Shown here piece after piece: positions 948 through 36,200 of a stretch of DNA of 45,957 nt (the first letter of the stretch is position 1; each line of letters starts with the position of its first letter). The notes beneath the pieces were generated by a model. It was given only the letters and a program-made list of their open reading frames with translations, did not search any database and was not told the DNA's origin. The stretch is from Verrucomicrobiota bacterium (GTDB taxonomy: Bacteria; Verrucomicrobiota; Verrucomicrobiia; Limisphaerales; CANJSG01), in contig JBBQXJ010000034.1 of assembly GCA_038209745.1 (NCBI GenBank), positions 1 to 45,957 of the forward strand, written 5' to 3'. A program made the position numbers and the translations under genes.

Positions 948-1595
948 ATGAACTGGTATTACGTCATCAACGGTCAACAAACCGGCCCCGTCACCGAATC
1001 CCAGCTCGATGAGCTGGCCCGTGCCGGAACGATCAAGTCGGACACGCTCGTCTGGGCGGAAGGCATGGCGAACTGGCTGCCCTACAACCAGGCCCGGGGT
1101 GGCGGAGTGCAGGGACAACCGCCGATCATCACGCCGATGTCGGGTGGGCTCGGCGGATTCCAGGCGTTGTCGGCTGATGTGGCGAAGAAGCGGGTCCAGG
1201 GGCCGGCCATCGGGTTGATCGTGAGCGGCGCCATCGGTGTTTTGATTGGATTGGCCAATGTGGCCCAGTCCGTCATGGGCGGCGCGGGACAGCAGGCGCA
1301 ACTGGGCAAGGCCGTGGCCGAGCTGCCGCCTGAATTCCAGCATTGGGGCGAAATGATCGGGAAGATGACGGGGCCGATGGGAATGGTGTTCGTCGTGATC
1401 GGTTTGTTGATCAGCGTTTTCACCATTTTCGCCGGGGTCCAGATGCAGCGGCTCCGCAACTTTTGGATGCCGATGACCGCGTCGATCCTGGGCATCCTGT
1501 CGTGCTTCTCCGGCTGTTGCTGCGTCAGCCTGCCGATCGGCATCTGGGCCATCGTGGTCCTGATGAAGCCCGAAGTGAAATCCGCCTTCGAGTGA
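948..1595 (+). CDS. GYF_2 (DUF4339) domain membrane protein with Cys-rich C-terminal TM segment
   Basis: MNWYY...QQTGPV...TLVWAEGMANW GYF_2 signature; about three hydrophobic helices; CFSGCCCVSLPIGIWAIVVL. Confidence 0.85.
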   Translation: MNWYYVINGQQTGPVTESQLDELARAGTIKSDTLVWAEGMANWLPYNQARGGGVQGQPPIITPMSGGLGGFQALSADVAKKRVQGPAIGLIVSGAIGVLIGLANVAQSVMGGAGQQAQLGKAVAELPPEFQHWGEMIGKMTGPMGMVFVVIGLLISVFTIFAGVQMQRLRNFWMPMTASILGILSCFSGCCCVSLPIGIWAIVVLMKPEVKSAFE

Positions 1596-1596
1596 G

Positions 1597-2088
1597 ATGA
1601 AGCCCGTCGAGCCCCAGCGCAACGCCGCGATGCCTACGGCGGTGCCGCCTCCGGTGCCGTGGCCCTCCGCCGTGCTGCGTTGGCGACGGGCGATCATGGC
1701 GGTCGCGCTGTTGATCGCGGGGGGGGTCGTGTCCTGGATGGTCTGGTCCACGGAGCCGAACGGGCAGTTGTTCTATCCGCGATGCCAGTTCCACAGGCTC
1801 ACCGGGCTGCAATGTCCCGGCTGCGGCGCGACCCGGGCCGTGTATTACTTGTTGCACGGCGAAGTGGTGGCCGCGATCCGGAGCAACGCGCCGTTGGTGC
1901 TCTTCTTCGTGCCGCTCCTGGGTCTGTGGGGCTGGAAGGGGCTCTTGGGCCAGCGGGTCGAACATCGCTTCACGGGGCGGTGGGCCGTCGGGATTTTGAT
2001 CCTGCTGCTCGCCTTCTTCGTGGTGCGGAATCTGCCCGGTCCCACCCATGCTTGGTTGAATCCGCCTCCATCCGCCGCCTCGCCATGA
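1597..2088 (+). CDS. DUF2752 family membrane protein
   Basis: C-x-FHRLTGLQCPGCGATRA motif, AAIRSN and VVRNLP segments, three TM helices. Confidence 0.9.
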   Translation: MKPVEPQRNAAMPTAVPPPVPWPSAVLRWRRAIMAVALLIAGGVVSWMVWSTEPNGQLFYPRCQFHRLTGLQCPGCGATRAVYYLLHGEVVAAIRSNAPLVLFFVPLLGLWGWKGLLGQRVEHRFTGRWAVGILILLLAFFVVRNLPGPTHAWLNPPPSAASP

Positions 2089-3155
2089 ACTGGTTCTACG
2101 CCGAAAACGGAGTTCAACGCGGACCGATCGAAGATTCGCAGTTCGACCAATTGGCCGCTTCCGGCGCGATCAAGCCTTCGACGCTCGTGTGGTGCGAGGG
2201 CATGGCCGGATGGAAGCCCTACGCGGAAGCGCGACCCGTCGCCGGTGCGGCACCGACCACCGCCGGCGTTATCTGCGCCGGTTGCGGCGGGAGCTTCTCC
2301 GTCGACGAGGTGGTGCGGGTCGAAGGGCGTTTCGTTTGTGCGAACTGCAAACCGGCGATTCTCCAGCAGATGCTGGAAGGCGTCGCGCCGTCCGGATCAG
2401 GATCACGAGGCACGGTGTCCGAGGCGGATCTGCTCCAGCGGGACTATTCCGTGGATATTGGCGGCTGCCTTGGGCGCAGTTGGGAGACGTTCAAGGCGGA
2501 TCCATGGACCATCATCGGCGTGTCGATCCTGGCCTACATCGCGATGGTGGCAGGGGGGATCATCCCGATTCTCGGCCCCATTCTCCAGTTCGCGGTGCAA
2601 GGAGCCATCTTGGGCGGCGTGTGGCTGTTCTACATCAAGAAAGCCCGGGGCCAGGTCGCCGGAGTGGGCGATGCGTTTTCGGGTTTCGGGCCAAGATTCG
2701 GCCCTCTCTTTCTGGCTTCGTTCATCCCGACGGTCATCACCCTGCTGGTCGTCGCGGTTGCGGCGATTCCGTTTGTTTTTGGGTTCATCGCGACAGCTGC
2801 GAGCACGGGGCGGGGCGGGGCGGGGCCGGAGATCTCCGCCGCGGTCATTGCGGGGTTGGTCATTGGTGGACTGGTTTTGGCTTTTCTGATCCTGGTCGTG
2901 ACGTTGATGTGGTTCTTCGCCCTGCCGCTGGTCATCGACAAGGGCTACGGCTTTTGGTCCGCGATGGAGCTCAGCCGGAAGACGGTATTCAAGCGGTTCT
3001 GGTCGACCGTGCTCATGGTGATCGTGGCCTGGTTGCTGATGGCGGCCGGGATTATGGCCTGCCTGGTCGGAGTTCTCGTGACCGGGCCGGTCGTGTTCGG
3101 AATGTTCGCCGAACACTATAAATGCGTCTTCGATGATCTCACTCCCCAATCGTAG
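2085..3155 (+). CDS. GYF_2 + Zn-finger + multi-pass membrane domain protein
   Basis: ATG at 2085 overlaps previous stop (ATGA); MNWFY..QRGP..TLVWCEGMAGW; CAGC...CANC; C-terminal polytopic domain (FWSAMELSRK). ORF-track start at 1659 is an upstream extension. Confidence 0.85.
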   Translation: MNWFYAENGVQRGPIEDSQFDQLAASGAIKPSTLVWCEGMAGWKPYAEARPVAGAAPTTAGVICAGCGGSFSVDEVVRVEGRFVCANCKPAILQQMLEGVAPSGSGSRGTVSEADLLQRDYSVDIGGCLGRSWETFKADPWTIIGVSILAYIAMVAGGIIPILGPILQFAVQGAILGGVWLFYIKKARGQVAGVGDAFSGFGPRFGPLFLASFIPTVITLLVVAVAAIPFVFGFIATAASTGRGGAGPEISAAVIAGLVIGGLVLAFLILVVTLMWFFALPLVIDKGYGFWSAMELSRKTVFKRFWSTVLMVIVAWLLMAAGIMACLVGVLVTGPVVFGMFAEHYKCVFDDLTPQS

Positions 3156-3161
3156 AATCCC

Positions 3162-3917
3162 ATGAATTGGTATTACGCACACCACGGTCAGCAGCTCGGT
3201 CCTGTTGACGACTCCCAGCTCGACGGCTTGATCTCCAGTGGCACGGTGCAGCCCGACACTCTGGTCTGGTCGGACGGGATGGCCAATTGGCAACCCTTGA
3301 GCCAGGCGCGCGCGACCGGACCGACTGGCGCGCCGGCCGGGAGTTTCTGTTCCCAGTGCGGTCGTGAATTTCCGCCCGAGGCGCTGATCCGGATCGCCGA
3401 CCGGACGGTGTGCTCCGAGTGCAAGGCGGTGGTGCTCCAGCAGCTTCAGGAAGGGGTCTTGAAGCCCGATAGCCAGGCGCACGAATACGGCGGATTCTGG
3501 ATCCGTTTCGCCGCCAAGTTCATCGATGGTCTCGTCATGGCCATCCCGATCTACGCGGTTAATTTTGGCGTCGCCTACGCGATGTTCGGCGTGCTGATGC
3601 CCCAGCCGGATCCGAACAACTGGGGGCCGTTCCTCGGCTATCAGGGGGTGATCACGGCGTTCAACATTCTCTTCGGCATGGCCTACTCCGGTTTCTTCCT
3701 CGGCAAATACGCGGCGACACCCGGCAAGATGGCGTGCGGATTGAAGGTGATCCGGGCCGATGGAACGGAGATGACCTTTTGGCGCGGAGCAGTGCGGTAT
3801 CTCGGTGAATTCGTCAGCAGCCTGACGTGCTTCATCGGCTACATCATGGTGGCGTTCGACGAGGAGAAGCGGGCGCTGCATGACCGCATGTGTGGCACGC
3901 GCGTGGTGAAGAAGTGA
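3162..3917 (+). CDS. GYF_2 + Zn-finger + RDD domain protein
   Basis: GYF_2 N-terminus; CSQC...CSEC; RDD motifs GFWIRFAAKFIDG, ATPGKMACGLKV, RALHDRMCGTRVV. Confidence 0.9.
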   Translation: MNWYYAHHGQQLGPVDDSQLDGLISSGTVQPDTLVWSDGMANWQPLSQARATGPTGAPAGSFCSQCGREFPPEALIRIADRTVCSECKAVVLQQLQEGVLKPDSQAHEYGGFWIRFAAKFIDGLVMAIPIYAVNFGVAYAMFGVLMPQPDPNNWGPFLGYQGVITAFNILFGMAYSGFFLGKYAATPGKMACGLKVIRADGTEMTFWRGAVRYLGEFVSSLTCFIGYIMVAFDEEKRALHDRMCGTRVVKK

Positions 3918-4513: not shown

Positions 4514-5058
4514 AGGACCGCCCCTACAAACGCCTGCCGGGTCGCCGGTTCCTCAGCATGGCGGGCAAGCAAACCCTGTGGCTCGGGAGGGACCATCTGT
4601 TGAGCGTGTGCTCCAGCGGGTTCGCCGAACAGTATCGGCGGTTCTTCCTCCGCGACATCGCGGCCATCACGGTGCAGCGGACGCGGCGGTGGATGATCTG
4701 GAACCTGATTCTTGGTGGCACTGTGCTGTTTATCGTTTTGCTAGGTATGGCACTCGCCTTAAGCGGTGTATTGCCTGCCGTTGACCAACTAGCCGGCGAT
4801 CTGTTGATAGCATTAGTTTTTCTCCCGTCATTTTTGGCTCTGCTCGTCAATCTCCTCCGGGGGCCGACCTGTTCGGTCCGCATCCAAACGGCGGTACAGA
4901 CCCGCGAGATCCCGGCGGTGGGCAGGCTCAAGGCGGCCGACAAGCTCCTCGCGGAACTCACGCCCTTGATCCAAGCGGCCCAGCTTGTCAGCCCGCCTCC
5001 GCCTCCCTCCTCGCCCGTTCCGGAACCGCCCGCCGCCCCGGAGGATCCCGTCCTATGA
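4510..5058 (+). CDS. Hypothetical membrane protein (TM hairpin, Pro-rich C-terminal tail)
   Basis: ATG at 4510 overlaps previous stop (ATGA); two hydrophobic helices; PPPPPSSPVPEPP tail; stop overlaps next start. Confidence 0.75.
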   Translation: MKDRPYKRLPGRRFLSMAGKQTLWLGRDHLLSVCSSGFAEQYRRFFLRDIAAITVQRTRRWMIWNLILGGTVLFIVLLGMALALSGVLPAVDQLAGDLLIALVFLPSFLALLVNLLRGPTCSVRIQTAVQTREIPAVGRLKAADKLLAELTPLIQAAQLVSPPPPPSSPVPEPPAAPEDPVL

Positions 5059-5378
5059 TCTCCCTTTCCGGCCATGTCTGCCTGAACCACGCCGGTCGCG
5101 AAGCGGTCGCGAAGTGTCCGGGGTGCGGCCAGTTCTTCTGCCGGGAATGCATCACCGAACACGACGACCGGGTGTTGTGCTCCGGCTGTCTGCGCAAACT
5201 TGTCCGCATCGATGCGCCCAAGGGACGGTGGGGAACCTTTCTGGCCCGTTCGCTCCAGATGATGGCGGGATTTTTCGTGGCGTGGGTGATGTTTTATGCG
5301 ACGGCGAGGGTGCTGCTGTCGCTCCCGGCGAACTTCCACGACGGGACCCTCTGGAAAACCTCGCTCTTCGAGGACTGA
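5055..5378 (+). CDS. Small B-box-like Zn-finger membrane protein
   Basis: CLNH..CPGC..CREC..H..CSGC followed by one TM helix; ATGA coupling. Confidence 0.8.
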   Translation: MISLSGHVCLNHAGREAVAKCPGCGQFFCRECITEHDDRVLCSGCLRKLVRIDAPKGRWGTFLARSLQMMAGFFVAWVMFYATARVLLSLPANFHDGTLWKTSLFED

Positions 5379-5380
5379 GC

Positions 5381-7021
5381 ATGAAGCCGCGCCGCAAGAA
5401 CGCCCCGAGCCCGGTGGACCTCATCGAGGACGCGGTCCATCTGCTGCGCGAAGCGTCGTTTGGGACGTGGGTGCTGTATTTTACGGGCACCGTTCCCTTC
5501 GTGCTGGGGCTGCTCTACTTCTGGGCCGACATGTCGCAGAGCGCGTTTGCGGACCAGCGGGCGGTCGGCGCGGCGCTGGGCATGGTGCTGCTGTTCCTCT
5601 GGATGAAGACCTTCCAGGCCCTGTTCGCCGCGAGACTGCGCGCGTCGCTGATCGCGGTCCCCTCGCCCCGGTGGACAGCGAAAGGATTGGCGTCGCTTGT
5701 GGGCGAGCAGGTGCGTCTCCAGTCATGGGGCTTGGTCGTAATGCCCGCGGCGTGCTGTCTGATCCTTCCGGCTGGATTCGCCTTCGGCTTTTTCCAGATC
5801 CTGACCGCGTTGCCGGAGAAGGGCCCGGGCGGTTCCCGGATCCAACGGGCTTGGAAGGAGCTCGTCCGCTGGCCGTCGGAGGACTTCATGACGCTGCTGC
5901 TGCTGCTGGGACTTTGGTGGCTGCTCGCGGTGAACATCCTCGTCGTGATCTATCTGGGGCCGAGCCTGCTGAAGACTTTGTTCGACTACGAAACGCTGTT
6001 TTCCCGAAGTCCTTGGGCGGCCTTCAATACGACCCTCCTGATGTCCGTGCTCATGGTGTCGTGGCTTGGCTGGGATCCGTTGGTCAAGGCGGTCCATGTC
6101 ATCCGCGTTTTCAAGGGCGAGGGGCGAGAGAGCGGCGCGGACCTGTTGGCCCGTCTGCGGCATGTCTCCCAGCGGATGGCTGGAGCGGCGATGCTCGTGC
6201 TGGGCTTGTTGAGCATGGCGGCGAACGCAGCCGAACCGTCGCTGAACGGCGATGAAGCCGTGATCGTATCGGGTTCAGAACGTTCGCCCGTCACGACGCA
6301 GGAGCTGAACCGCTCCATCGACGAGGTGCTTCGACAACGCCGCTACAGCTGGCGGATTCCACGCGGCGCCTTCGTCAAGGACGACCGGGCAACGGAGGCA
6401 GGCGGCTGGCGTCATTGGTTGCGGAGCTTCGCGGACTCGATTGGTTCGGCGGCCAAGCGGGTCGCTCGCTGGATCGCGGATCTGTTCCAGTTGAAGGGTC
6501 GGAACTCGAACTCCTCGAACATCTCCTTCGCCGACGCGGCCACGGTGCTGAAGTGGATCTTGATCCTGCTGATCGCCGTGGTTCTCGGAGCCTTGGTCTG
6601 GCTGCTGGTGAAGGCGTGGATCCAGCGTCCACGCGTCGTCGGCGCGGCGGCGGACGCGACGCCGGCGATTCCCGACGTGTCGGATGAAAACGTCGGTGCC
6701 GACCAGCTGCCGGAAGACGGCTGGATGCGGCTCGCGGTCGACCTGATGGGCAAGGGAGACTTCCGCCTCGCGCTGCGCGCCCTGTATCTCGCGAGCCTCG
6801 CGCACCTCGCCCAGCGGGAGTTCATCCGGTTGGCCCGCCACAAGTCCAACCGCGACTACCTGCGCGAGGTCCACCGTCGCGCCCGGGCCTTGCCCGAGAT
6901 CTCCGCGGCCTTCAGCACCAACGTCGGGGCCTTCGACCGCGTGTGGTATGGGCGGCACCCGGCCACGGGCGAACTGGTCCAGGAATTCCGCGCCAACCTG
7001 GAAAGGATCCGCGCGTGTTGA
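5381..7021 (+). CDS. DUF4129 domain multi-pass membrane protein
   Basis: ATG 5381; N-terminal polytopic region; C-terminal GDFRLALRALYLASL...KSNRDYLRE...FDRVWYG DUF4129-type motif. Confidence 0.85.
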   Translation: MKPRRKNAPSPVDLIEDAVHLLREASFGTWVLYFTGTVPFVLGLLYFWADMSQSAFADQRAVGAALGMVLLFLWMKTFQALFAARLRASLIAVPSPRWTAKGLASLVGEQVRLQSWGLVVMPAACCLILPAGFAFGFFQILTALPEKGPGGSRIQRAWKELVRWPSEDFMTLLLLLGLWWLLAVNILVVIYLGPSLLKTLFDYETLFSRSPWAAFNTTLLMSVLMVSWLGWDPLVKAVHVIRVFKGEGRESGADLLARLRHVSQRMAGAAMLVLGLLSMAANAAEPSLNGDEAVIVSGSERSPVTTQELNRSIDEVLRQRRYSWRIPRGAFVKDDRATEAGGWRHWLRSFADSIGSAAKRVARWIADLFQLKGRNSNSSNISFADAATVLKWILILLIAVVLGALVWLLVKAWIQRPRVVGAAADATPAIPDVSDENVGADQLPEDGWMRLAVDLMGKGDFRLALRALYLASLAHLAQREFIRLARHKSNRDYLREVHRRARALPEISAAFSTNVGAFDRVWYGRHPATGELVQEFRANLERIRAC

Positions 7022-8256
7022 GATCCGGAAAATGGAGCGTGGCGTGGTTGCTGGCGCTGGCCTCGTTGCTCGGCTTCGGCGTTTGGCAGCTGCTCTCCCT
7101 GCGCTACGAAGTGGGCGACGTGTATCCGCCGTATTCCACGCTGCGGAGCGATCCGCTCGGGTCGCGGGCGCTCTACGACGCCTTCGACGAGCTGCCGGAG
7201 GTGCGGTGTCGCCGGAACTTCGAAGTGCTGGAGCGGATGGGTTCCGGTGCGGACACGTCGTTGTTCATCCTGGGGGCGGACTGGGACGACTTCGATCTGA
7301 CCGAGGAGGACGAGGCGCTGTTGCTCGACCGATTCATGAAGTCGGGCGGCCGATTAGTGGTGGTCTTTCGGGGGCGCCTCGGAGAATCGATCTTCCGGCA
7401 ATCGTCGCGGAAAGCCGGCGCGCGGCGCCTGAGTCTGCGCAAACCGCAGAGCGGTCCGCCGAAGCCCGCGGGCTCCAAGATCCAACTCGAGAAGCGTTGG
7501 GGCATCGGTCTCGACTATCGGACCTTCCCCACGAACTCGATCGCGGAAGACGGAACGATCACGCCGGTGATCGTGAGCCGGGCCGAGGGGTCGACGGCGC
7601 TGCCCGGAACCCTCGAATGGCGTTCGGCCATGGTCTTCAAAGTCCACACCAACACCGTTCCACCGGAGGCGTGGCGCCACGTCTATCTGCGGGACGGCAA
7701 CCCGGTGGTGGCGGAGCGGAGCTTCGGCCGGGGTTCCCTGGTGTTGATGTCCGACGCGTTCTTGGTGAGCAACGAGGCGCTGTGGAAAGATCGGCAGGTG
7801 GAGGTGCTGCGCTGGCTCGCGGGCAGTTCGCGGCGGTTGATCTTCGATGAAACCCATCTCGGGGTGGCTGAGAAGGCGGGCATTGCCACGCTGTTCCGCC
7901 GCTACCAGATCTTCTGGGTGGTGGGCGCCGCGCTGGTGGTCTTCGGCCTCGCCATCTGGCGGAACTCGAGTCCGCTGGTGCCGACGTTGGACGACGATCC
8001 GGTGGCGTTGGCCCGGGAAGGCCGCGACTCGCGGAGCGGCTTGGTCAACCTGCTGCGACGCACCATTCCGCCCGCTGAAGTGCTGGGCTATTGCTTCCGC
8101 GAATGGCGGAAGTCCGGCCAGGCCCGGCGGCAGGTCTCGGCGGAGCGGCTGCGCAAGGCCGAGATGTTGGCCGCCGGCGCCGAACCCACGCCGGGCGGGA
8201 AGACGCATCCGGTCGAGGTCTACCGGGAGATCGCGCGGACTTTGAGGAAGAGATGA
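7015..8256 (+). CDS. DUF4350 domain protein
   Basis: N-terminal TM, YSTLRSDPLGSRALY, GRGSLVLMSDAFLVSNEAL, LIFDETHLG; position before MoxR. Start GTG 7015 or TTG 7018. Confidence 0.8.
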   Translation: MLRSGKWSVAWLLALASLLGFGVWQLLSLRYEVGDVYPPYSTLRSDPLGSRALYDAFDELPEVRCRRNFEVLERMGSGADTSLFILGADWDDFDLTEEDEALLLDRFMKSGGRLVVVFRGRLGESIFRQSSRKAGARRLSLRKPQSGPPKPAGSKIQLEKRWGIGLDYRTFPTNSIAEDGTITPVIVSRAEGSTALPGTLEWRSAMVFKVHTNTVPPEAWRHVYLRDGNPVVAERSFGRGSLVLMSDAFLVSNEALWKDRQVEVLRWLAGSSRRLIFDETHLGVAEKAGIATLFRRYQIFWVVGAALVVFGLAIWRNSSPLVPTLDDDPVALAREGRDSRSGLVNLLRRTIPPAEVLGYCFREWRKSGQARRQVSAERLRKAEMLAAGAEPTPGGKTHPVEVYREIARTLRKR

Positions 8257-8329
8257 TCTAGAGATGCGTCTTCTGCGGCCCTTGAAACCGGGCGGGGGAC
8301 GACACGGACAACGCCGGTGAACTGAATTT

Positions 8330-9295
8330 ATGGACGGAACACTTGAACAACTGAAGGACGTGCTGGCGCGGGCGCGCGGCGAGGTGGCCAAGGTCATCAT
8401 CGGCCAGAGCGACGTGGTGGATCTGGCGTTGATCGCCATCTTCACCGGTCAGCACGCGTTGATCGAAGGCGTGCCGGGCGTGGCCAAGACGCTGCTCGTG
8501 CGGACGCTGGCGCGGGTGCTGGGCTGCGAATTCAACCGCATCCAGTTCACGCCGGACTTGATGCCGTCGGACATCACGGGCACGAGCGTCTTCAACCTCC
8601 AGACGAACTCGTTCTCGCTGGTCAAGGGGCCGGTCTTCACCGCGTTCCTGCTGGCCGACGAGATCAACCGTGCGCCGGCCAAGACGCAGTCGGCGCTGCT
8701 CCAGGCGATGCAGGAGCGGCAGGTGAGCATCGACCGCGACACGCACATCCTCTCGCCGGCGTTCACGGTGTTCGCCACGCAGAACCCCATCGAATACGAG
8801 GGCACCTATCCGTTGCCCGAGGCGCAGAAGGACCGGTTCATGTTGAAGATCGTGATGTCCGCGCCCGACCGCGCCGACGAACTGCTGCTGGCCAAACGGA
8901 TGCTCGGGACGGATGCGCCGGAGGCGACTTTGGCGGCGGGGACGGTCGAGTCCGTCCTCTCGGTGGAGCTGCTGCCGGCGGTGCGCCGGGCGATGAACGG
9001 GGTGGTGCTGCGGGAGGAGTTGGTCGCGTATCTCGTCGATGTTGTGCGGGCGACGCGGCAGGAGGAGAGCGTGCTGGTCGGAGCCGGACCCCGCGCGACG
9101 CAGGCGCTGCTGCTGGCGAGCCGGGCAGCGGCGGCGCTCGCCGGCCGCGACTTCGTGACGCCCGACGACATCAAGGCACTCGCGTTACCGGTGCTGGGGC
9201 ATCGGCTGGTGTTGCGGCCCGAGTTTGAGATTGAAGGCGTGTCGGTGGCTGAAGCCGTTCAGCGGGTGCTGGAGAAGGTGGCGGTCCCGCGCTGA
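8330..9295 (+). CDS. moxR: MoxR family AAA+ ATPase
   Basis: Walker [25 protein letters not shown], Walker [41 protein letters not shown]. Confidence 0.97.
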
Positions 9296-9327
9296 GGAAG
9301 GAGACCATGAAACGGACTCAACAAATA

Positions 9328-9475
9328 GGCGGTAGGGACGTCTCGCAGAGGCGTCCCCATCTACCGCCGGAGGCGGTGCGAGCGTCTCGGGCCGAGGATG
9401 TGTGCCTTCCGAGATGCTCGCTCCGTTCGCTCCGTCGCGCTCGAATCAGGGACGGCTGGGCCAGCCGTTTCTGCC
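9328..9475. repeat. REP/REPIN-like composite palindromic element
   Basis: GGCGGTAG..CTACCGCC enclosing GGGACGTCTC-GCA-GAGGCGTCCC; second stem 9378-9390/9409-9421; third hairpin ACGGCTG-GGC-CAGCCGT ending in TTCTGCC. Confidence 0.6.
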
Positions 9476-9494
9476 ACGATTGACCGGATTAAAC

Positions 9495-10877
9495 ATGGTG
9501 CCCTCCCGTAAACTTCTGGTCTTCGCCGCAGCGATCCTGCTGCCGGCCTCGTTGCTGGCGGCGGTGGTCCCGGAGCAGGCGGGTGTGGCGTTGATCGTGA
9601 TGGCGGGCGGCGTGGCAGTGGCGGTGATCGACGCGGCGGCCGGCGCGGCGCGGTTGAACGGCCTATCGATCGAAGCGGCCAAGGCGGTGCGGCTGAACAA
9701 GGACCGGGTCGGAGAGATCGAACTGTCCATCGTGCAGACCAAGCCGACTGCGCGGCGATTGCGACTGGGGTTGGCCTTGCCGCCGGAGATCACCTCGGAC
9801 GTCGAGATCATGGAAGTGGACCTGAAGGCGGCCGAGCGAAGCCGCGTTCGTTGGAAGGTGACGCCGCTGATGCGCGGGAATTTCCCGCTCGAACTTTGCG
9901 CGGTCGAGGCCGCGTCGCCGTTTGGGCTCTGGGCGATTCGTTCGCGGATGCGGTTGTCCACCGAGCTGCGGGTCTATCCGGACCTCATGGCGGATCGACG
10001 GATGGCGGCGGCGGTGTTTCTGAACCGTGGCCAGTATGGCGGCCACGCGATCCGGGCGATGGGACGGGGGCGCGAGTTCGAGAAACTACGGGACTATCTT
10101 CCTGGCGACAGCATGGACGAGGTTCACTGGAAAGCGACGGCGCGGAAGGGGCGGCCGGTGACCAAGGTCTTCCAGATCGAGCGGACGCAGGAGGTGTATG
10201 TGCTGGTGGACGCGTCGCGCTTGAGCGGAAGGACGGAGCAGATAGACAAGCAAGCTCTCGGGAAGGCGGGCGGACCCACCCTAGGCCCCTCTAGGGAGGC
10301 GAAAAAGCTGGAGACGCATCTGGAGCGGTTCGTCAGCGCGGCGCTGCTGCTGGGGTTGGCGGCGGAGCAGCAGGGAGACCATTTCGGACTGATGACCTTC
10401 AGCGACCAGGTTCATCGCTTCGTGCGCGCGGGCAATGGTCAGGCGCATTTCTCGACCTGTCGCGACGCGCTCTACACGTTGCAGCCGCGGGCGGTGACCC
10501 CGGACTTTGACGAGCTCTGCACGTCCGTGAGGAGCCGCTTGCGCAAGCGTTCGCTGCTGGTCTTCCTGACGGCGTTGGACGATCCCATCCTCGCGGAGAG
10601 CTTCGCGCGCAACATGGAGCAGCTGGCGCGACAACATCTGGTGCTGGTGGTGATGGTGACTCCTCCGGAAGTGAGACCGCTTTTCAGCGACGACCGGCCG
10701 GCGACCGTGGACGCGCTCTACGGCGAGCTGGGCGGGCATCTGCGCTGGCAAGAATTGCGGGAATTGGAGGGGGGATTGAGGCGCCATGGCGTGCGGTTCG
10801 AGACGGCGCCGGAAGCGGAGCTGGTGCCGCGCTTGTTGGCGCAATACACGACCATCAAACGGAGGCAGTTGCTGTGA
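9495..10877 (+). CDS. DUF58 (vWA-like) MoxR partner protein
   Basis: ATG 9495; two N-terminal TM; GREFEKLRDYLPGDSMDEVHWKATAR; VLVDASRLS MIDAS-like motif. Confidence 0.93.
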   Translation: MVPSRKLLVFAAAILLPASLLAAVVPEQAGVALIVMAGGVAVAVIDAAAGAARLNGLSIEAAKAVRLNKDRVGEIELSIVQTKPTARRLRLGLALPPEITSDVEIMEVDLKAAERSRVRWKVTPLMRGNFPLELCAVEAASPFGLWAIRSRMRLSTELRVYPDLMADRRMAAAVFLNRGQYGGHAIRAMGRGREFEKLRDYLPGDSMDEVHWKATARKGRPVTKVFQIERTQEVYVLVDASRLSGRTEQIDKQALGKAGGPTLGPSREAKKLETHLERFVSAALLLGLAAEQQGDHFGLMTFSDQVHRFVRAGNGQAHFSTCRDALYTLQPRAVTPDFDELCTSVRSRLRKRSLLVFLTALDDPILAESFARNMEQLARQHLVLVVMVTPPEVRPLFSDDRPATVDALYGELGGHLRWQELRELEGGLRRHGVRFETAPEAELVPRLLAQYTTIKRRQLL

Positions 10878-11887
10878 TCATCGATCTGCGGCGATTCATC
10901 GAGGCGGAGCGCCCCTACTGGACCGAACTGGAGGCGATGCTCAATCGCCTGGACGACCAGCTGTCGGATCGGTTGAACGTCGAGCAGGCGCGTCGGCTGC
11001 ACTACCTCTACGAAAGGGCGGCGGCGGATCTTGGGCGGTTGACGACGTTCGCCTCGGAGCCGGAGCTGCGGGCGTTTTTGGAGCGGATCGTGGCGCGGGC
11101 CTATGCGCATGTGCACGAACACCGCCGGCGGATGGAACGGTTCCGACCGATGGCGTGGTTGTTCGGGACGTTTCCACGGACTTTTCGGCGAAGGGTCCGT
11201 GCCTTCTGGTTGTCGGTGGCGCTGACCGTGGCCGGCGTGATTTTTGGCGGAGCCGTCGTGGCGGTGGATCCCGAGGCGAAGGCGATCATAATGCCCATGC
11301 CGCATCTCCAGATGCATCCGTCGGAGCGGGTGGCGAGGGAAGAGCGGATGGAGGGCAGAAACATGGATGGCGCGATGGCGACGTTCTCCACGGACCTGAT
11401 GACCCACAACACGAAGGTGTCGATCATGGTGATGGCGCTGGGATTGACCTGGGGCGTCGGGGCGTCGCTGTTGCTTTTCTACAACGGGGTGGTTCTGGGC
11501 GCGGTGGTGATGGACTATTTGATGGCCGGAGAGGGGGAGTTTCTCGCTGGCTGGCTGCTGCCGCATGGAAGCATCGAGATCCCCGCGATCCTGATCGCCG
11601 GACAGGCGGGACTGCTGCTGGCGGGGGCGCTGATCGGTTGGGGGGACCGGCGCGGGATGAGGACGCGATTTCGGGTGTTGGCGCCGGATTTGGCGACGTT
11701 GATCGGGGGCGTGGCCGTGATGCTCGTGTGGGCAGGTATCGTGGAGTCGTTCCTGTCGCAGTTGCACGCACCGGTGCTGCCGTATTGGGCGAAGATTGTG
11801 TTTGGGCTGGTGGAGCTGGGGCTGTTGATGGCGTTTCTTGGACGATCGGGGCGGGGCGGGGCGGATCCTGGAGAGGGGAAATCATGA
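10874..11887 (+). CDS. SpoIIM/DUF95 family membrane protein
   Basis: YLYERAAADL, THNTKVS, LFYNGVVLG, LLPHGSIEIPAILIAG, AGIVESF. Confidence 0.92.
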   Translation: MIIDLRRFIEAERPYWTELEAMLNRLDDQLSDRLNVEQARRLHYLYERAAADLGRLTTFASEPELRAFLERIVARAYAHVHEHRRRMERFRPMAWLFGTFPRTFRRRVRAFWLSVALTVAGVIFGGAVVAVDPEAKAIIMPMPHLQMHPSERVAREERMEGRNMDGAMATFSTDLMTHNTKVSIMVMALGLTWGVGASLLLFYNGVVLGAVVMDYLMAGEGEFLAGWLLPHGSIEIPAILIAGQAGLLLAGALIGWGDRRGMRTRFRVLAPDLATLIGGVAVMLVWAGIVESFLSQLHAPVLPYWAKIVFGLVELGLLMAFLGRSGRGGADPGEGKS

Positions 11888-33294: not shown

Positions 33295-33321
33295 CACGGA
33301 TTTCACGAAGGGCACGGATTT
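33295..33321 (+). repeat. 9-bp-period triple direct repeat (CACGGATTT-CACGAAGGG-CACGGATTT)
   Basis: Read directly in the intergenic region after the HAD gene. Confidence 0.55.
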
Positions 33322-33429
33322 GGGGGAAACCGCCCTCCTTCCGGGAAGCGATGATCCGCGCTCGGGCGAAAATTCGATCTCCTGGTTCGGGCGCTGGCAT
33401 TTCCGAAAAGACCCGCCACCATCCAGTCC

Positions 33430-34635
33430 ATGAATTCGGAAGCGGCAACCTATCCGGGCATGTCGGCACCGCCCTCGGCCGTGGTGCCGGTCAAGTCCGT
33501 GGCGGCCGCTCTGCCATGGTTCTGCTATGCCGTGGTCTTCGGCGCGGTCTGCATTCCGCTGGGGGTGCTTTGGGACATCTCGTGGCATTCGACGATCGGA
33601 CGGGACACGTTTTGGACGCCGGCGCACATGCTGATCTATCTGGGGGGCGCGATGCCGGGGATGGTCTGCGGGTGGCTGGTGTTGAAGACGACTTTCGCGG
33701 GGACGGTGGAGGAACGGGAGCGGGCGGTGCGGATCTGGGGATTTCGCGGGCCGTTGGGCGCTTGGATCATCATCTGGGGTTCGCTGGCGATGCTGACGTC
33801 GGCGCCGTTCGACAACTGGTGGCATGACGCCTACGGGCTGGATGTGCGCATCCTGTCGCCACCGCACACGGTGTTGGCCTTGGGCATGTATGGTGTGGCC
33901 GTGGGGGCATGGGTGCTGATCGCCTCGTGGCGCAACCGGGTCTCGGGCTTGGCGGAACGGCACAGTGTCTGGCTGTTCGTGCTGCTGGGCGGGGTGTTGA
34001 TCACGATGCTGAACATCTTCATGACGGAGTTCAGCCTGCCGAACGACCAGCACAACGGGACGTTCTATCGGGTCTCCTGCCGCGCCTATCCGATCTATCT
34101 GGCGATCATCGCGCGGGCGGCGCAGATGCGCTGGGCGGCGACGAAGGCGGCGCTGGTCTTCATGGGAATCGTCGCGACGATGGCGTGGATCCTTCCTTTG
34201 TTTCCGGCCACGCCGAAGCTGGCGCCGATCTACAATCCGGTGACCCACATGGTGCCGCCGGCGTTCCCGTTGCTGCTGGTGTTTCCTGCTTTGGCGGTGG
34301 ATGCGGTGATGCTGCTGGAGAAACGGCTCCGGCCGCGCTGGTGGCGGGACTGGACGTTGGCGGTCGCGATCGGATTGGCTTTCTCCGCCGTGTTCTTCGC
34401 GGTGCAATGGAATTTCTCGAAGGTGCTCGTCTCGGCGGCGGCGGACAATTGGCTGCTGATCGGCGAACGGCATTTCGGCTATGGTGCGGGGGTGGGAGAA
34501 TGGCGGCATCGTTTCTGGGGCTTGGACAACGACTCCTTGAGGTGGGGGAGCGTCGGCATCGCGCTGCTGGCTTCGGTCCTGTCGGCGCGACTGGGACTGT
34601 GGCTGGGCAAGGGCCTGAAGGCGGTCCAGCGCTGA
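33430..34635 (+). CDS. Polytopic membrane protein with PmoC/AmoC-like metal motifs and PmoA-like C-terminal half
   Basis: About 9-10 TM; WDISWHSTIGRDTFWTPAH (D49,H53,H66) and FDNWWHDAYGLDVRILSPPH (D128,H132,H146); RWAAT and FPLLLVFPALAVDAVMLL segments. CDS is secure, functional call is inference. Confidence 0.7.
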   Translation: MNSEAATYPGMSAPPSAVVPVKSVAAALPWFCYAVVFGAVCIPLGVLWDISWHSTIGRDTFWTPAHMLIYLGGAMPGMVCGWLVLKTTFAGTVEERERAVRIWGFRGPLGAWIIIWGSLAMLTSAPFDNWWHDAYGLDVRILSPPHTVLALGMYGVAVGAWVLIASWRNRVSGLAERHSVWLFVLLGGVLITMLNIFMTEFSLPNDQHNGTFYRVSCRAYPIYLAIIARAAQMRWAATKAALVFMGIVATMAWILPLFPATPKLAPIYNPVTHMVPPAFPLLLVFPALAVDAVMLLEKRLRPRWWRDWTLAVAIGLAFSAVFFAVQWNFSKVLVSAAADNWLLIGERHFGYGAGVGEWRHRFWGLDNDSLRWGSVGIALLASVLSARLGLWLGKGLKAVQR

Positions 34636-34639
34636 GTCC

Positions 34640-36118
34640 ATGAAGCACTTCTTCCAAATATGGCGGCGGTTTTCCGCAGGGCTGTTGGTGTTCCTCCTGG
34701 CGGCGGCGGCGATCCCTTCCCAGGCCCACGTCGGGACGCAGAACATCGTGTTCGAGGGGTTGGCGGGGCCGTATCCGCTGCGGGTGATGATCAAGCCGCC
34801 GGTGGTGGTCCCGGGTTTGGCGCAGGTGACGATCCGGCGATTGTCGGACGAGGTCACCGGGGTCTCGGTGCTGCCGATGCGCTGGGACGTGGGGCGCAAG
34901 GGAGCGCCGCCGCCGGAAGACGCGGTACCGGTCAAGGGGGACGACACGCTCTTCACGGCGCAGCTCTGGCTGATGGACTCCGGCGCCTACAGCGTGCTGG
35001 TCAACGCCAAGGGTTCGCGGGGCGAGCATGCGCTGATCGTGCCCGTGAATTCCGTGGCGACGCAGCGTCTCGGATTGCCCAAGTGGTTCGGAGCGATGCT
35101 GGGCGTCCTCGGGTTGTTGCTCGTCGGATTACTGGCCACCATTGCCGGATCGGCGGTCCGGGAAAGCTCGTTGCCGGCCGGGATGTTGCCGGATCGGCGC
35201 CGGAAGGTTCGCGGAGTGGTCGCCTCGCTGGTCTTCGGCTTGATCCTGGCCGGAGGTCTGGTTTTTGGAAGGGCCTGGTGGACGTCGGAGGAGAACCGCT
35301 ACTTGAACCGGGTGCTCTATAAACCAGAGCCGCTGGACGTGCGGAACGTATCGGGTCGGCTCTTGCTGGAGCTGGATCCAGCCGGGGAAGGGCAGCGCGA
35401 CCGCACTCCGCTGATCCCCGACCACGGGAAACTGATGCACCTGTTCATGGTGCGGAGCGGGACGATGGACGCCGTGGCGCATCTGCACCCGGTGAGAATC
35501 GAAGGGGGGAAGAAGTTCGCCTGCGCTCTGCCGCCATTGCCCGAGGGAAAATATGAGTTGTTCGCGGACATCACGCAGGAGAGTGGGTTCGCGCAGACGC
35601 TGGTCGGGACGGTCCTGATCTCGCCGGACGACGCCTCAGCGCGCTATGTGGCGACGGATCCGGATGATGCGTTCCGGGCCGTGGCACTCGGGGATCCCTT
35701 GGGGATTGGGTTGTCGCAGGGCAGACGGTTGCGACGGATCGACAGTGTGGCAATCCGGGTCGATCAACCGGCGGCGTTGCGATTCCAAGTGGTGGATGCA
35801 GAAGATCGGGCTGTGGAGCTGGAGCCGTATCTCGGGATGTTCGGCCACGCCTTCATCCTGAAGGAAGACAGCACGGTCTTCAGCCACCTGCATCCGCAGG
35901 GAAATGTTTCGATGGGAGCGGGGTTGGCCTTCACGCGTCGGGAGCTGGGCGACCAAGCGGCCCACAAGCTGATGGAGGAGGTTTGCAGTCCCTTGGGAGC
36001 GGATCATGTGCTGACGTTTCCGTATGCGTTTCCGCAAGCGGGGATCTATCGGATGTGGGTCCAGGTGCGGGTCGCTGGCCAAGTGGAAACGGCGGCGTTC
36101 CAGATCAAGGTGGAGTAG
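34640..36118 (+). CDS. Exported membrane-anchored His-rich putative copper-binding protein (PmoB-like topology)
   Basis: Signal peptide ending SQA then His30; soluble domain; two TM helices (about aa 147-212); two repeats DHGKLMHLF..AHLHP and PYLGMFGHAF..SHLHP; 4 bp after previous gene. Confidence 0.7.
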   Translation: MKHFFQIWRRFSAGLLVFLLAAAAIPSQAHVGTQNIVFEGLAGPYPLRVMIKPPVVVPGLAQVTIRRLSDEVTGVSVLPMRWDVGRKGAPPPEDAVPVKGDDTLFTAQLWLMDSGAYSVLVNAKGSRGEHALIVPVNSVATQRLGLPKWFGAMLGVLGLLLVGLLATIAGSAVRESSLPAGMLPDRRRKVRGVVASLVFGLILAGGLVFGRAWWTSEENRYLNRVLYKPEPLDVRNVSGRLLLELDPAGEGQRDRTPLIPDHGKLMHLFMVRSGTMDAVAHLHPVRIEGGKKFACALPPLPEGKYELFADITQESGFAQTLVGTVLISPDDASARYVATDPDDAFRAVALGDPLGIGLSQGRRLRRIDSVAIRVDQPAALRFQVVDAEDRAVELEPYLGMFGHAFILKEDSTVFSHLHPQGNVSMGAGLAFTRRELGDQAAHKLMEEVCSPLGADHVLTFPYAFPQAGIYRMWVQVRVAGQVETAAFQIKVE

Positions 36119-36164
36119 TTGATCGGGCGGCGAGGCTGCCGGCGCGAGGCCTGCCTGGCTCCAT

Positions 36165-36200
36165 AAAAAGAAAAACGCGCCCGTCTTCTGACGGGCGCGT
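36165..36200 (-). terminator. Rho-independent terminator
   Basis: 11-bp stem ACGCGCCCGTC/GACGGGCGCGT, 4-nt loop, T-run on - strand after the oxidoreductase gene. Confidence 0.8.

Follow-up and report, generated by a model that had tools for sequence, protein, structure and literature searches.

We analysed a stretch of 45,957 nucleotides from a Verrucomicrobiota bacterium (assembly GCA_038209745.1, contig JBBQXJ010000034.1, forward strand), referred to as the window, and focused on two adjacent genes at 33430..36118, here termed P1 and P2. Based on the sequence alone, an earlier note had taken them for a candidate divergent relative of the copper membrane monooxygenases (CuMMOs), i.e., particulate methane monooxygenase (pMMO) as well as ammonia monooxygenase (AMO), with a PmoC-PmoA-like fusion followed by a PmoB-like gene. 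The two genes and the parts of P1 are as follows (TM, transmembrane; ORF, open reading frame; AF2, AlphaFold2):

33430..34635, plus strand: P1 gene, 401 aa, 10-helix inner-membrane protein, putative PmoC-core/PmoA-like fusion (ORF, AF2 model, and family profile)
34640..36118, plus strand: P2 gene, 492 aa, exported, membrane-anchored, His-rich partner (ORF, AF2 model, and position downstream of P1)
33430..33945, plus strand: N-half of P1, residues 1-172, four TM helices (30-55, 64-90, 109-135, 144-168), judged homologous to the C-terminal four-helix core of PmoC/AmoC
33571..33627, plus strand: CuC-like motif W48-D49-I-S-W-H53-x12-H66 (WDISWHSTIGRDTFWTPAH), spacing D-x3-H-x12-H
33811..33867, plus strand: CuD-like motif D128-N-W-W-H132-x13-H146, spacing x3-H-x13-H, with Asp instead of Asn
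33946..34632, plus strand: C-half of P1, residues 173-401, six TM helices, PmoA/AmoA-like fold, with a conserved periplasmic loop (258-283) predicted to touch P2

The gene structure agreed exactly with the two co-oriented genes 4 bp apart that had been described before, one for a polytopic protein of 401 aa and one for an exported protein of 492 aa. P1 ends with TGA at 34633-34635, followed by the four bases GTCC and the ATG of P2; the AF2 model of P1 showed ten helices, and a signal peptide was found in 54/54 aligned P2 homologues. GC contents at the three codon positions (GC1/GC2/GC3 of 0.59/0.50/0.86 for P1 and 0.68/0.44/0.81 for P2) followed the coding pattern of the genome (63% GC in the window), which the overlapping alternative ORFs did not display. 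The spacing of only 4 bp suggests that P1 and P2 are translationally coupled. Both genes share the start context GTCC ATG AA (33426-33435 and 34636-34645), with no obvious Shine-Dalgarno sequence upstream, and a promoter scan upstream of P1, which is uninformative for this phylum, returned 0 sigma-70-like sites.

Searches against Pfam and NCBIfam revealed no family over the cut-off for either P1 or P2. Nevertheless, P1 belongs to a large family: 7714 of 8000 scored candidates were homologous at E<=1e-3, and a profile search of the full library resulted in 2509 representatives (50% clustering) at E<=1e-3 and 1544 at E<=1e-10, which are named in their sources only as 'hypothetical' or 'uncharacterized membrane protein'. 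Many of these representatives begin at profile positions 119 (11 proteins), 137/138, or 151, corresponding to internal Met/Val codons; such late starts are probably 5'-truncated gene calls on short contigs and not natural split forms. The AF2 model of P1, based on an alignment of 65 sequences, displayed 10 long helices with a predicted local distance difference test (pLDDT) score of 93.5 and a predicted template modelling (pTM) score of 0.91.

Single-sequence searches yielded below-threshold signals for the PmoC/AmoC family, namely 13.7 bits for Pfam AmoC (PF04896, cut-off 26.7, E 0.041, residues 33-72) and 7 bits for TIGR03078 (cut-off 280.6). A phmmer search of P1 against all Protein Data Bank (PDB) sequences gave one meaningful match, AmoC of N. 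europaea (9cl6_C, E 0.0054, P1 residues 48-159), and the same chain was the only match of a 26-sequence family profile (E 0.0045). When the family members were scanned singly against Pfam, AmoC was matched by 17/65 at E<=1 (best E 0.0011), and no other Pfam family by more than 2/65. For comparison of profiles with hhalign, we used nine PmoC sequences from verrucomicrobial methanotroph genomes plus 120 further PmoC/AmoC sequences (129 in total). The P1 family aligned with the nine verrucomicrobial sequences at E 2.9e-5 (probability 73.7%), and the N-half with all 129 at E 9.8e-6 (probability 82.5%, score 42.8, 94 columns) with all six ligand positions aligned, so that the resemblance to PmoC proposed for this half held. 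Reversed-profile controls scored 11.2-12.1 (E 0.65-0.76), and the C-half compared with PmoC scored 18.7 (E 0.088). On the strength of these profile alignments, the N-half of P1 is a real remote homologue of the PmoC/AmoC core. It is not a complete PmoC: the alignment of residues 36-162 starts near PmoC residue 112, approximately 110 N-terminal PmoC residues have no counterpart in P1, and only four TM helices are present, leaving the N-terminal third of PmoC unmatched. PmoC chains did not appear in the structural match tables for P1; since these list one chain per entry, with PmoA as the best chain of each pMMO/AMO entry, their absence is no evidence against a PmoC-like fold.

In the hhalign alignment, P1 D49/H53/H66 pair with PmoC D127/H131/H144 and P1 D128/H132/H146 with PmoC N198/H202/H216. 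The spacings are identical to those of the AmoC ligands of N. briensis AMO, given in the accessible part of PMC12801151 as Asp134/His138/His151 for CuC and Asn205/His209/His223 for CuD, and each ligand set of P1 lies where one helix ends and the following one begins. Conservation of these Asp and His residues, a check that had been proposed for the homologues, was high, ranging from 56 to 65 of the 65 diverse P1 homologues per ligand: D49 and H66 were found in 65/65, H53 in 56/65 (otherwise E/D/Q), D128 in 64/65, and H132 and H146 in 57/65 each, with all six kept together in 54/65. At the position of the CuD Asn, the family thus carries a different, metal-competent residue. Second-shell residues are also common to P1 and PmoC/AmoC (W-H, I-x-R-D-T, T-P-x-H). 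Judged by these residues, P1 keeps both ligand sets of the active-site pocket of pMMO/AMO, the CuD-like one with Asp in place of Asn. A coordinated change was detected in 8/65 homologues, in which H53 is replaced by E/D along with H132 by Q/L/T/S and H146 by Q/E, while D49, H66, and D128 are retained; this subgroup may represent a metal switch or the loss of the second site. As H53, H132, and H146 change together, it can be argued that the two sites of P1 work as one centre. We consider it improbable that the same ligand geometry binds a different metal (Zn, Fe, Mn) or has a different redox role, for instance in sensing or reducing metals or in carrying electrons like b561, with the likeness to CuMMOs confined to a helical scaffold.

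For the C-half, the evidence came mainly from structure. Foldseek with the P1 model gave no match at E<=1e-3, and the only consistent high-probability matches were PmoA/AmoA chains (probability 0.89-0.97, E 0.17-0.34). At the sequence level, none of the 65 family members matched Pfam AMO (PF02461) at E<=1, and hhalign of the C-half against nine PmoA sequences reached a probability of only 1.8%. Against 70 diverse PmoA/AmoA sequences from metagenome loci, it resulted in E 0.0014 (probability 17.7%, score 30.0), which is weak but above the controls (score 14.4-16.0, E 0.15-0.30). This alignment was colinear over 194 columns, P1 177-395 against PmoA 14-237, i.e., over the same range as the structural alignment. 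Thus, of the proposed resemblance to PmoA, the fold stood and membership of the sequence family did not; we regard a relationship of the C-half to PmoA as rather probable. The alternative that the C-half is a substrate-binding module like the S-components of energy-coupling factor (ECF) transporters (5edl, RibU, FolT, ThiT), making P1 a PmoC-like metal domain joined to a transporter module, appears very improbable: ECF T or A genes are not nearby, fewer P1 residues align with these proteins than with PmoA/AmoA, and Foldseek did not rank them for P1. The PmoA profile left out the ORF in pmoA position of a third pmoCAB-like operon in verrucomicrobial methanotroph genomes (L100:3582-4325, minus strand, and L101:10248-10985, plus strand), which is 21% identical to PmoA1/2 and is either a highly diverged PmoA3 or a frame chosen wrongly.

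The product of P2 was likewise modelled with high confidence (AF2 pLDDT 91.5), revealing a signal helix, a beta-sandwich (36-138), TM helices 148-175 and 186-225, and two further beta-sandwiches (231-327 and 344-491). Its parts are located as follows:

34640..34726, plus strand: signal peptide, residues 1-29 (...SQA/H), cleavage site inferred from sequence features
34727..35077, plus strand: N-domain, residues 30-146, beta-sandwich beginning at the invariant His30, with invariant W110 and M112
35078..35317, plus strand: TM hairpin of helices 148-175 and 186-225, from the AF2 secondary structure
35318..35644, plus strand: C1 domain, residues 227-335, beta-sandwich with invariant H262, H267, and H281-x-H283-P
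35645..36115, plus strand: C2 domain, residues 336-492, beta-sandwich with invariant H403 and H416-x-H418-P and a helical insert (425-448)

Homologues of P2 were found in 2369 of 8000 scored candidates at E<=1e-3. All 54 aligned homologues carried a Sec-type signal (positive n-region, hydrophobic core, small residue at -1) and His at +1. Eight His residues (H30, H262, H267, H281, H283, H403, H416, H418) were each conserved in 54/54, as were W110 and M112, so that, with the two TM helices, P2 is indeed the His-rich, membrane-anchored protein it had been taken for. C1 and C2 are internal duplicates sharing the motif ...G-x3-H-x13-H-L-H-P (hhalign probability 93.4%, E 2.6e-7). The N-domain is a candidate histidine-brace-type copper site. 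His30 is its sole conserved His; HxH motifs occur only in the C-terminal domains (H281/H283 and H416/H418), and a CuB-type site, which combines an N-terminal His with an HxH in the N-domain, is therefore not complete. The 50 structural matches listed for P2 did not include PmoB, and hhalign against PmoB was null in a comparison with only six PmoB sequences. P2 hence has the topology of PmoB and its N-terminal His, while ancestry from PmoB is not detectable; the suggested PmoB likeness holds for the former two features, and neither a detectable homology nor the HxH of the N-domain accompanies them.

Matches of P2 to other families pointed to copper-handling proteins. YtkA-like Pfam domains were matched by 10/54 members (best E 3.3e-5), and CopC (PF04234) marginally by 2/54 at E<=1 (best E 0.09), whereas no match to DUF1775 was found. 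Periplasmic copper proteins, namely CrdA of H. pylori (9ll2), CopC (5icu), and Tp34/HftA, also count among the nearest known systems. According to the available text of PMC13344008, YcnJ (CopC-CopD-YtkA) and CtaK, a protein acting in the assembly of CuA, are known to contain the YtkA domain, and that of PMC12362106 describes YcnI as binding Cu(II) via an N-terminal His, a Glu, and a conserved Trp. Like YcnJ/YcnI of Bacillus subtilis, CopC/CopD, and CtaK, P2 is a membrane-tethered beta-sandwich protein with an N-terminal His and an invariant Trp as in YcnI; it contains YtkA-like domains, and its partner is a polytopic, His-bearing membrane protein, as in YcnJ/CopD. In P2, however, the YtkA-like domain occurs as a duplicate pair bearing an H...HxHP motif. 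Based on these similarities, the main rival to an enzyme is a module that acquires or relays copper, with CopC/CopD and YcnI/YcnJ as functional analogues, which we hold to be a possible but not the likelier reading. P2 would then capture periplasmic Cu via its N-terminal His and the two H...HxH sites and pass it to the D/H/H sites of P1, which would import it or hand it to membrane cuproenzymes, e.g., heme-copper oxidases or NosZ; the PmoC/PmoA-like fold would reflect shared ancestry without catalysis, possibly an ancestral role before CuMMOs arose. The YtkA-like and CopC/CrdA-like pieces of P2 and its many His sites speak for such a relay. On the side of P1 the evidence runs the other way, as CopD (PF05425) was matched by 0/65 members at E<=1, PmoC and PmoA, the relatives of P1, are not known as transporters, and the second-shell residues of the PmoC active-site loop are kept.

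Prediction of the P1:P2 complex at a 1:1 ratio, carried out as one of the checks listed in the earlier note, resulted in ipSAE interface scores of 0.79/0.79/0.78, compared with 0.00 for the best of three controls. The three runs had at least 92% of contacts in common, with a partner pLDDT of 81. When the predictor was calibrated, 116/157 solved complexes and 2/215 mismatched pairs attained the mark reached here, a yardstick that is rough here because our own alignments were used. In the complex model, the expected error was lowest (0.8-1.5 A) where helix 154-172 of P2 packs against helix 109-127 of P1, and the N-domain of P2 (56-59, 78-91, W110, M112-113, 140-146) contacts P1 at R58, 130-144, and 261-270. 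These predicted contacts correspond to the loops with CuD-like ligands and to the conserved periplasmic loop of the C-half. Loops rich in R/K were found in P1 at 91-108, 169-176, 229-239, 296-305, and the C-terminus, which would be cytoplasmic by the positive-inside rule, so that both ligand loops would be periplasmic, on the same side as the P2 domains. The predicted interface therefore agrees with the membrane topology of the two proteins. According to the models, P1 and P2 would form one inner-membrane complex, the figures being measures of model confidence and not measurements. The invariant polar residues of P1 concentrate on the periplasmic face, and only D291 (62/65) lies within a helix, a distribution that further argues against the relay reading.

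A gene-neighbourhood survey, likewise among the checks, was based on a motif scan of a collection with one genome per species, in which at least 598 stretches carried one sequence motif of the P1 family; the counts refer to the best 80 of these loci. By record label, they belong to Verrucomicrobiota (21), Acidobacteriota (22), Gemmatimonadota (33), and Methylomirabilota (2), with odd labels for the remaining 2. A P2 homologue was located directly downstream on the same strand in 76/76 loci with room, while in the other 4/80 the contigs end 0-2 bases past P1. Clustering of flanking ORFs over the 80 loci revealed no third conserved gene, as no family occurred in more than 12 loci. Recurrent neighbour families were without a common theme, including peptidases (M28, S15), DUF885, ZIP, ABC, amidohydrolase, histidine kinase, and iron-containing alcohol dehydrogenase, and two seemingly operonic clusters of downstream ORFs (5 loci each) were rejected as Arg-rich spurious frames. 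Genes for copper homeostasis or cuproenzymes (copA, copZ, sco, pcuAC, cox, or nos) did not recur beside the pair in the 80 loci, nor were ycnK-, csoR-, or copZ-type neighbours as known from YcnJ/YcnI found, which also counts against a relay.

With regard to its distribution, the pair was present in the window's order in 52/151 sampled genomes, 37/110 high-quality genomes, and 40/107 genera, compared with only 2/401 genomes in an even sample of the phylum and 0/5 of the verrucomicrobial methanotroph genomes searched; it is an accessory trait. Two metagenome-assembled genome records with the pair bear the titles 'Klebsiella pneumoniae' and 'Chitinophaga pinensis', though their P1 is 49-55% identical to verrucomicrobial and acidobacterial P1, and these titles are probably mislabelled.

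Compared with the CuMMOs (PF04896, PF02461, PF04744), the system shares a PmoC-core-like N-half with six CuC/CuD positions and several second-shell residues, a C-half with the PmoA/AmoA fold, and a P2 that, like PmoB, begins with His after the signal peptide and consists of a beta-sandwich, two TM helices, and further beta-sandwich domains; a tight membrane complex is likewise predicted. A C-like domain, an A-like domain, and a gene with B-topology 4 bp downstream reproduce the xmoCAB order, as had been proposed, but in two genes instead of three. The differences are the union of C and A in one polypeptide, the lack of about 110 N-terminal PmoC residues and the Asp in place of the CuD Asn, the lack of any CuMMO Pfam/NCBIfam model over cut-off, a P2 with no detectable homology to PmoB, no CuB HxH in the N-domain, and two YtkA-like domains with His motifs where PmoB has one cupredoxin, and a heterotrophic host with no genes for one-carbon or N-oxidation in this window. 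The profile comparison suggested for these proteins supported PmoC, was weak for PmoA, and, with six PmoB sequences, was null for PmoB.

Based on architecture and metal-binding residues, P1-P2 is very probably a two-subunit membrane metalloprotein complex related to CuMMOs. As the best explanation overall, which we rate at about even together with the mechanism it commits to, P1-P2 would be a distant, architecturally rearranged relative of pMMO/AMO. In this mechanism, the fused PmoC-core/PmoA-like P1 would expose a CuC/CuD-like double site on its periplasmic side, with the His-rich P2 as a cap; the N-domain of P2 (mature N-terminal His30, W110, M112) may lie directly on the ligand loops, and the first TM helix of P2 may pack on the P1 helix bearing D128 and H132. 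Copper at the periplasm-facing pair would act as the redox cofactor of an oxidase or oxygenase with a probably membrane-soluble substrate, and the His sites of P2 (the N-terminal His and the two H...HxH) would load copper and/or relay electrons. That the complex is a copper redox enzyme is a step we infer, and we place it slightly below even. We lean slightly to an enzyme because the C-A-(B-like) architecture is wholly retained, because P1 has kept the ligand sets of the proposed CuMMO active site together with its second-shell residues, because the conserved polar residues of P1 lie on one face and not along a transmembrane path as would suit a transporter, and because copper-homeostasis genes do not accompany the pair. 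The most specific version, a working copper-dependent oxygenase/oxidase of heterotrophic soil and sediment bacteria that is a sister lineage to all known CuMMOs and acts on a substrate other than methane or ammonia, with C and A in one chain and the role of B taken by an unrelated His-rich copper-relay protein, is doubtful as yet.

With these reservations, P1-P2 looks like a distant branch of the CuMMO superfamily, widespread and undescribed, whose C and A subunits are fused and whose B-like partner shows no detectable homology; a full-text literature search covering journals other than subscription titles revealed no publication that deals with a PmoC-PmoA-like family of fused or distant type. 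As far as the accessible sections of PMC11725843 and PMC12801151 go, the CuC/CuD pocket of PmoC/AmoC is the current active-site candidate for methane and ammonia oxidation, and investigating these enzymes is very difficult once they are taken out of native membranes. The large P1 family occurs in non-methanotrophs labelled as four phyla and, with just one partner gene, combines both ligand sets and second-shell residues in one C-A chain; should its mode of copper binding be the same, it would provide a two-gene model for expression, mutagenesis, and spectroscopy of the CuC/CuD site. In the sections available of Khadka et al. 2018 (PMC6215863), CuMMOs have no true outgroup, and thaumarchaeal AMO serves as a 'logical outgroup'. 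The P1 family may supply a real one for CuMMO phylogeny; should it be a sister-lineage enzyme, it would be the first true outgroup to root the CuMMO tree as well as a simpler two-gene system for CuC/CuD chemistry. The pair also bears on the origin of CuMMOs, i.e., an enzyme ancestor or a copper-handling complex, and if instead the copper relay applies, it would represent a novel kind of machinery by which bacteria of abundant soil phyla acquire copper.

The source genome (4.58 Mb, 140 contigs, 92% complete) belongs to the same class as the verrucomicrobial methanotrophs, though to another order, and the Pfam AmoC model had no match in it. The survey of window genes bore out the description of a heterotroph: it revealed two 3-keto-disaccharide-hydrolase proteins, GFO/IDH/MocA, and xylose-isomerase-like proteins, and none of the window genes is for methanol or hydroxylamine oxidation. 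P1-P2 is flanked by a haloacid dehalogenase (HAD) hydrolase gene just upstream and by a convergent GFO/IDH/MocA gene downstream, and one further feature lies between P2 and the latter:

36175..36200, no strand assigned: GC-rich hairpin, terminator-like site with 11 pairs and a T-run on the minus strand

Its arms of 11 bp are perfect (ACGCGCCCGTC...GACGGGCGCGT), and the scan found four terminator-like sites compared with 2.8 expected in shuffles. The hairpin likely marks the end of the two-gene unit, though this count lends it weak support, and it is possibly a bidirectional terminator.

DNA near-identical to window positions 33300-36200 (55-95% of sampled words) was detected in 20 sequencing runs from 20 studies, comprising 19 sediment and one soil metagenome, and the list of 24 sequencing runs contained no RNA run carrying this DNA. 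Other window genes encode GYF/RDD proteins, MoxR-DUF58, an exopolysaccharide (EPS)/exosortase locus with glycosyltransferases, TatC, ExbBD, aspartyl-tRNA synthetase (AspRS), Hsp20, and Lon. Three successive genes at 948-3917 each carry an N-terminal GYF_2 domain (E 1e-16 to 1e-19), the third also with an RDD domain, and are followed at 4985-11887 by a DUF4129 / DUF4350 / MoxR AAA / DUF58 / SpoIIM-like cluster.

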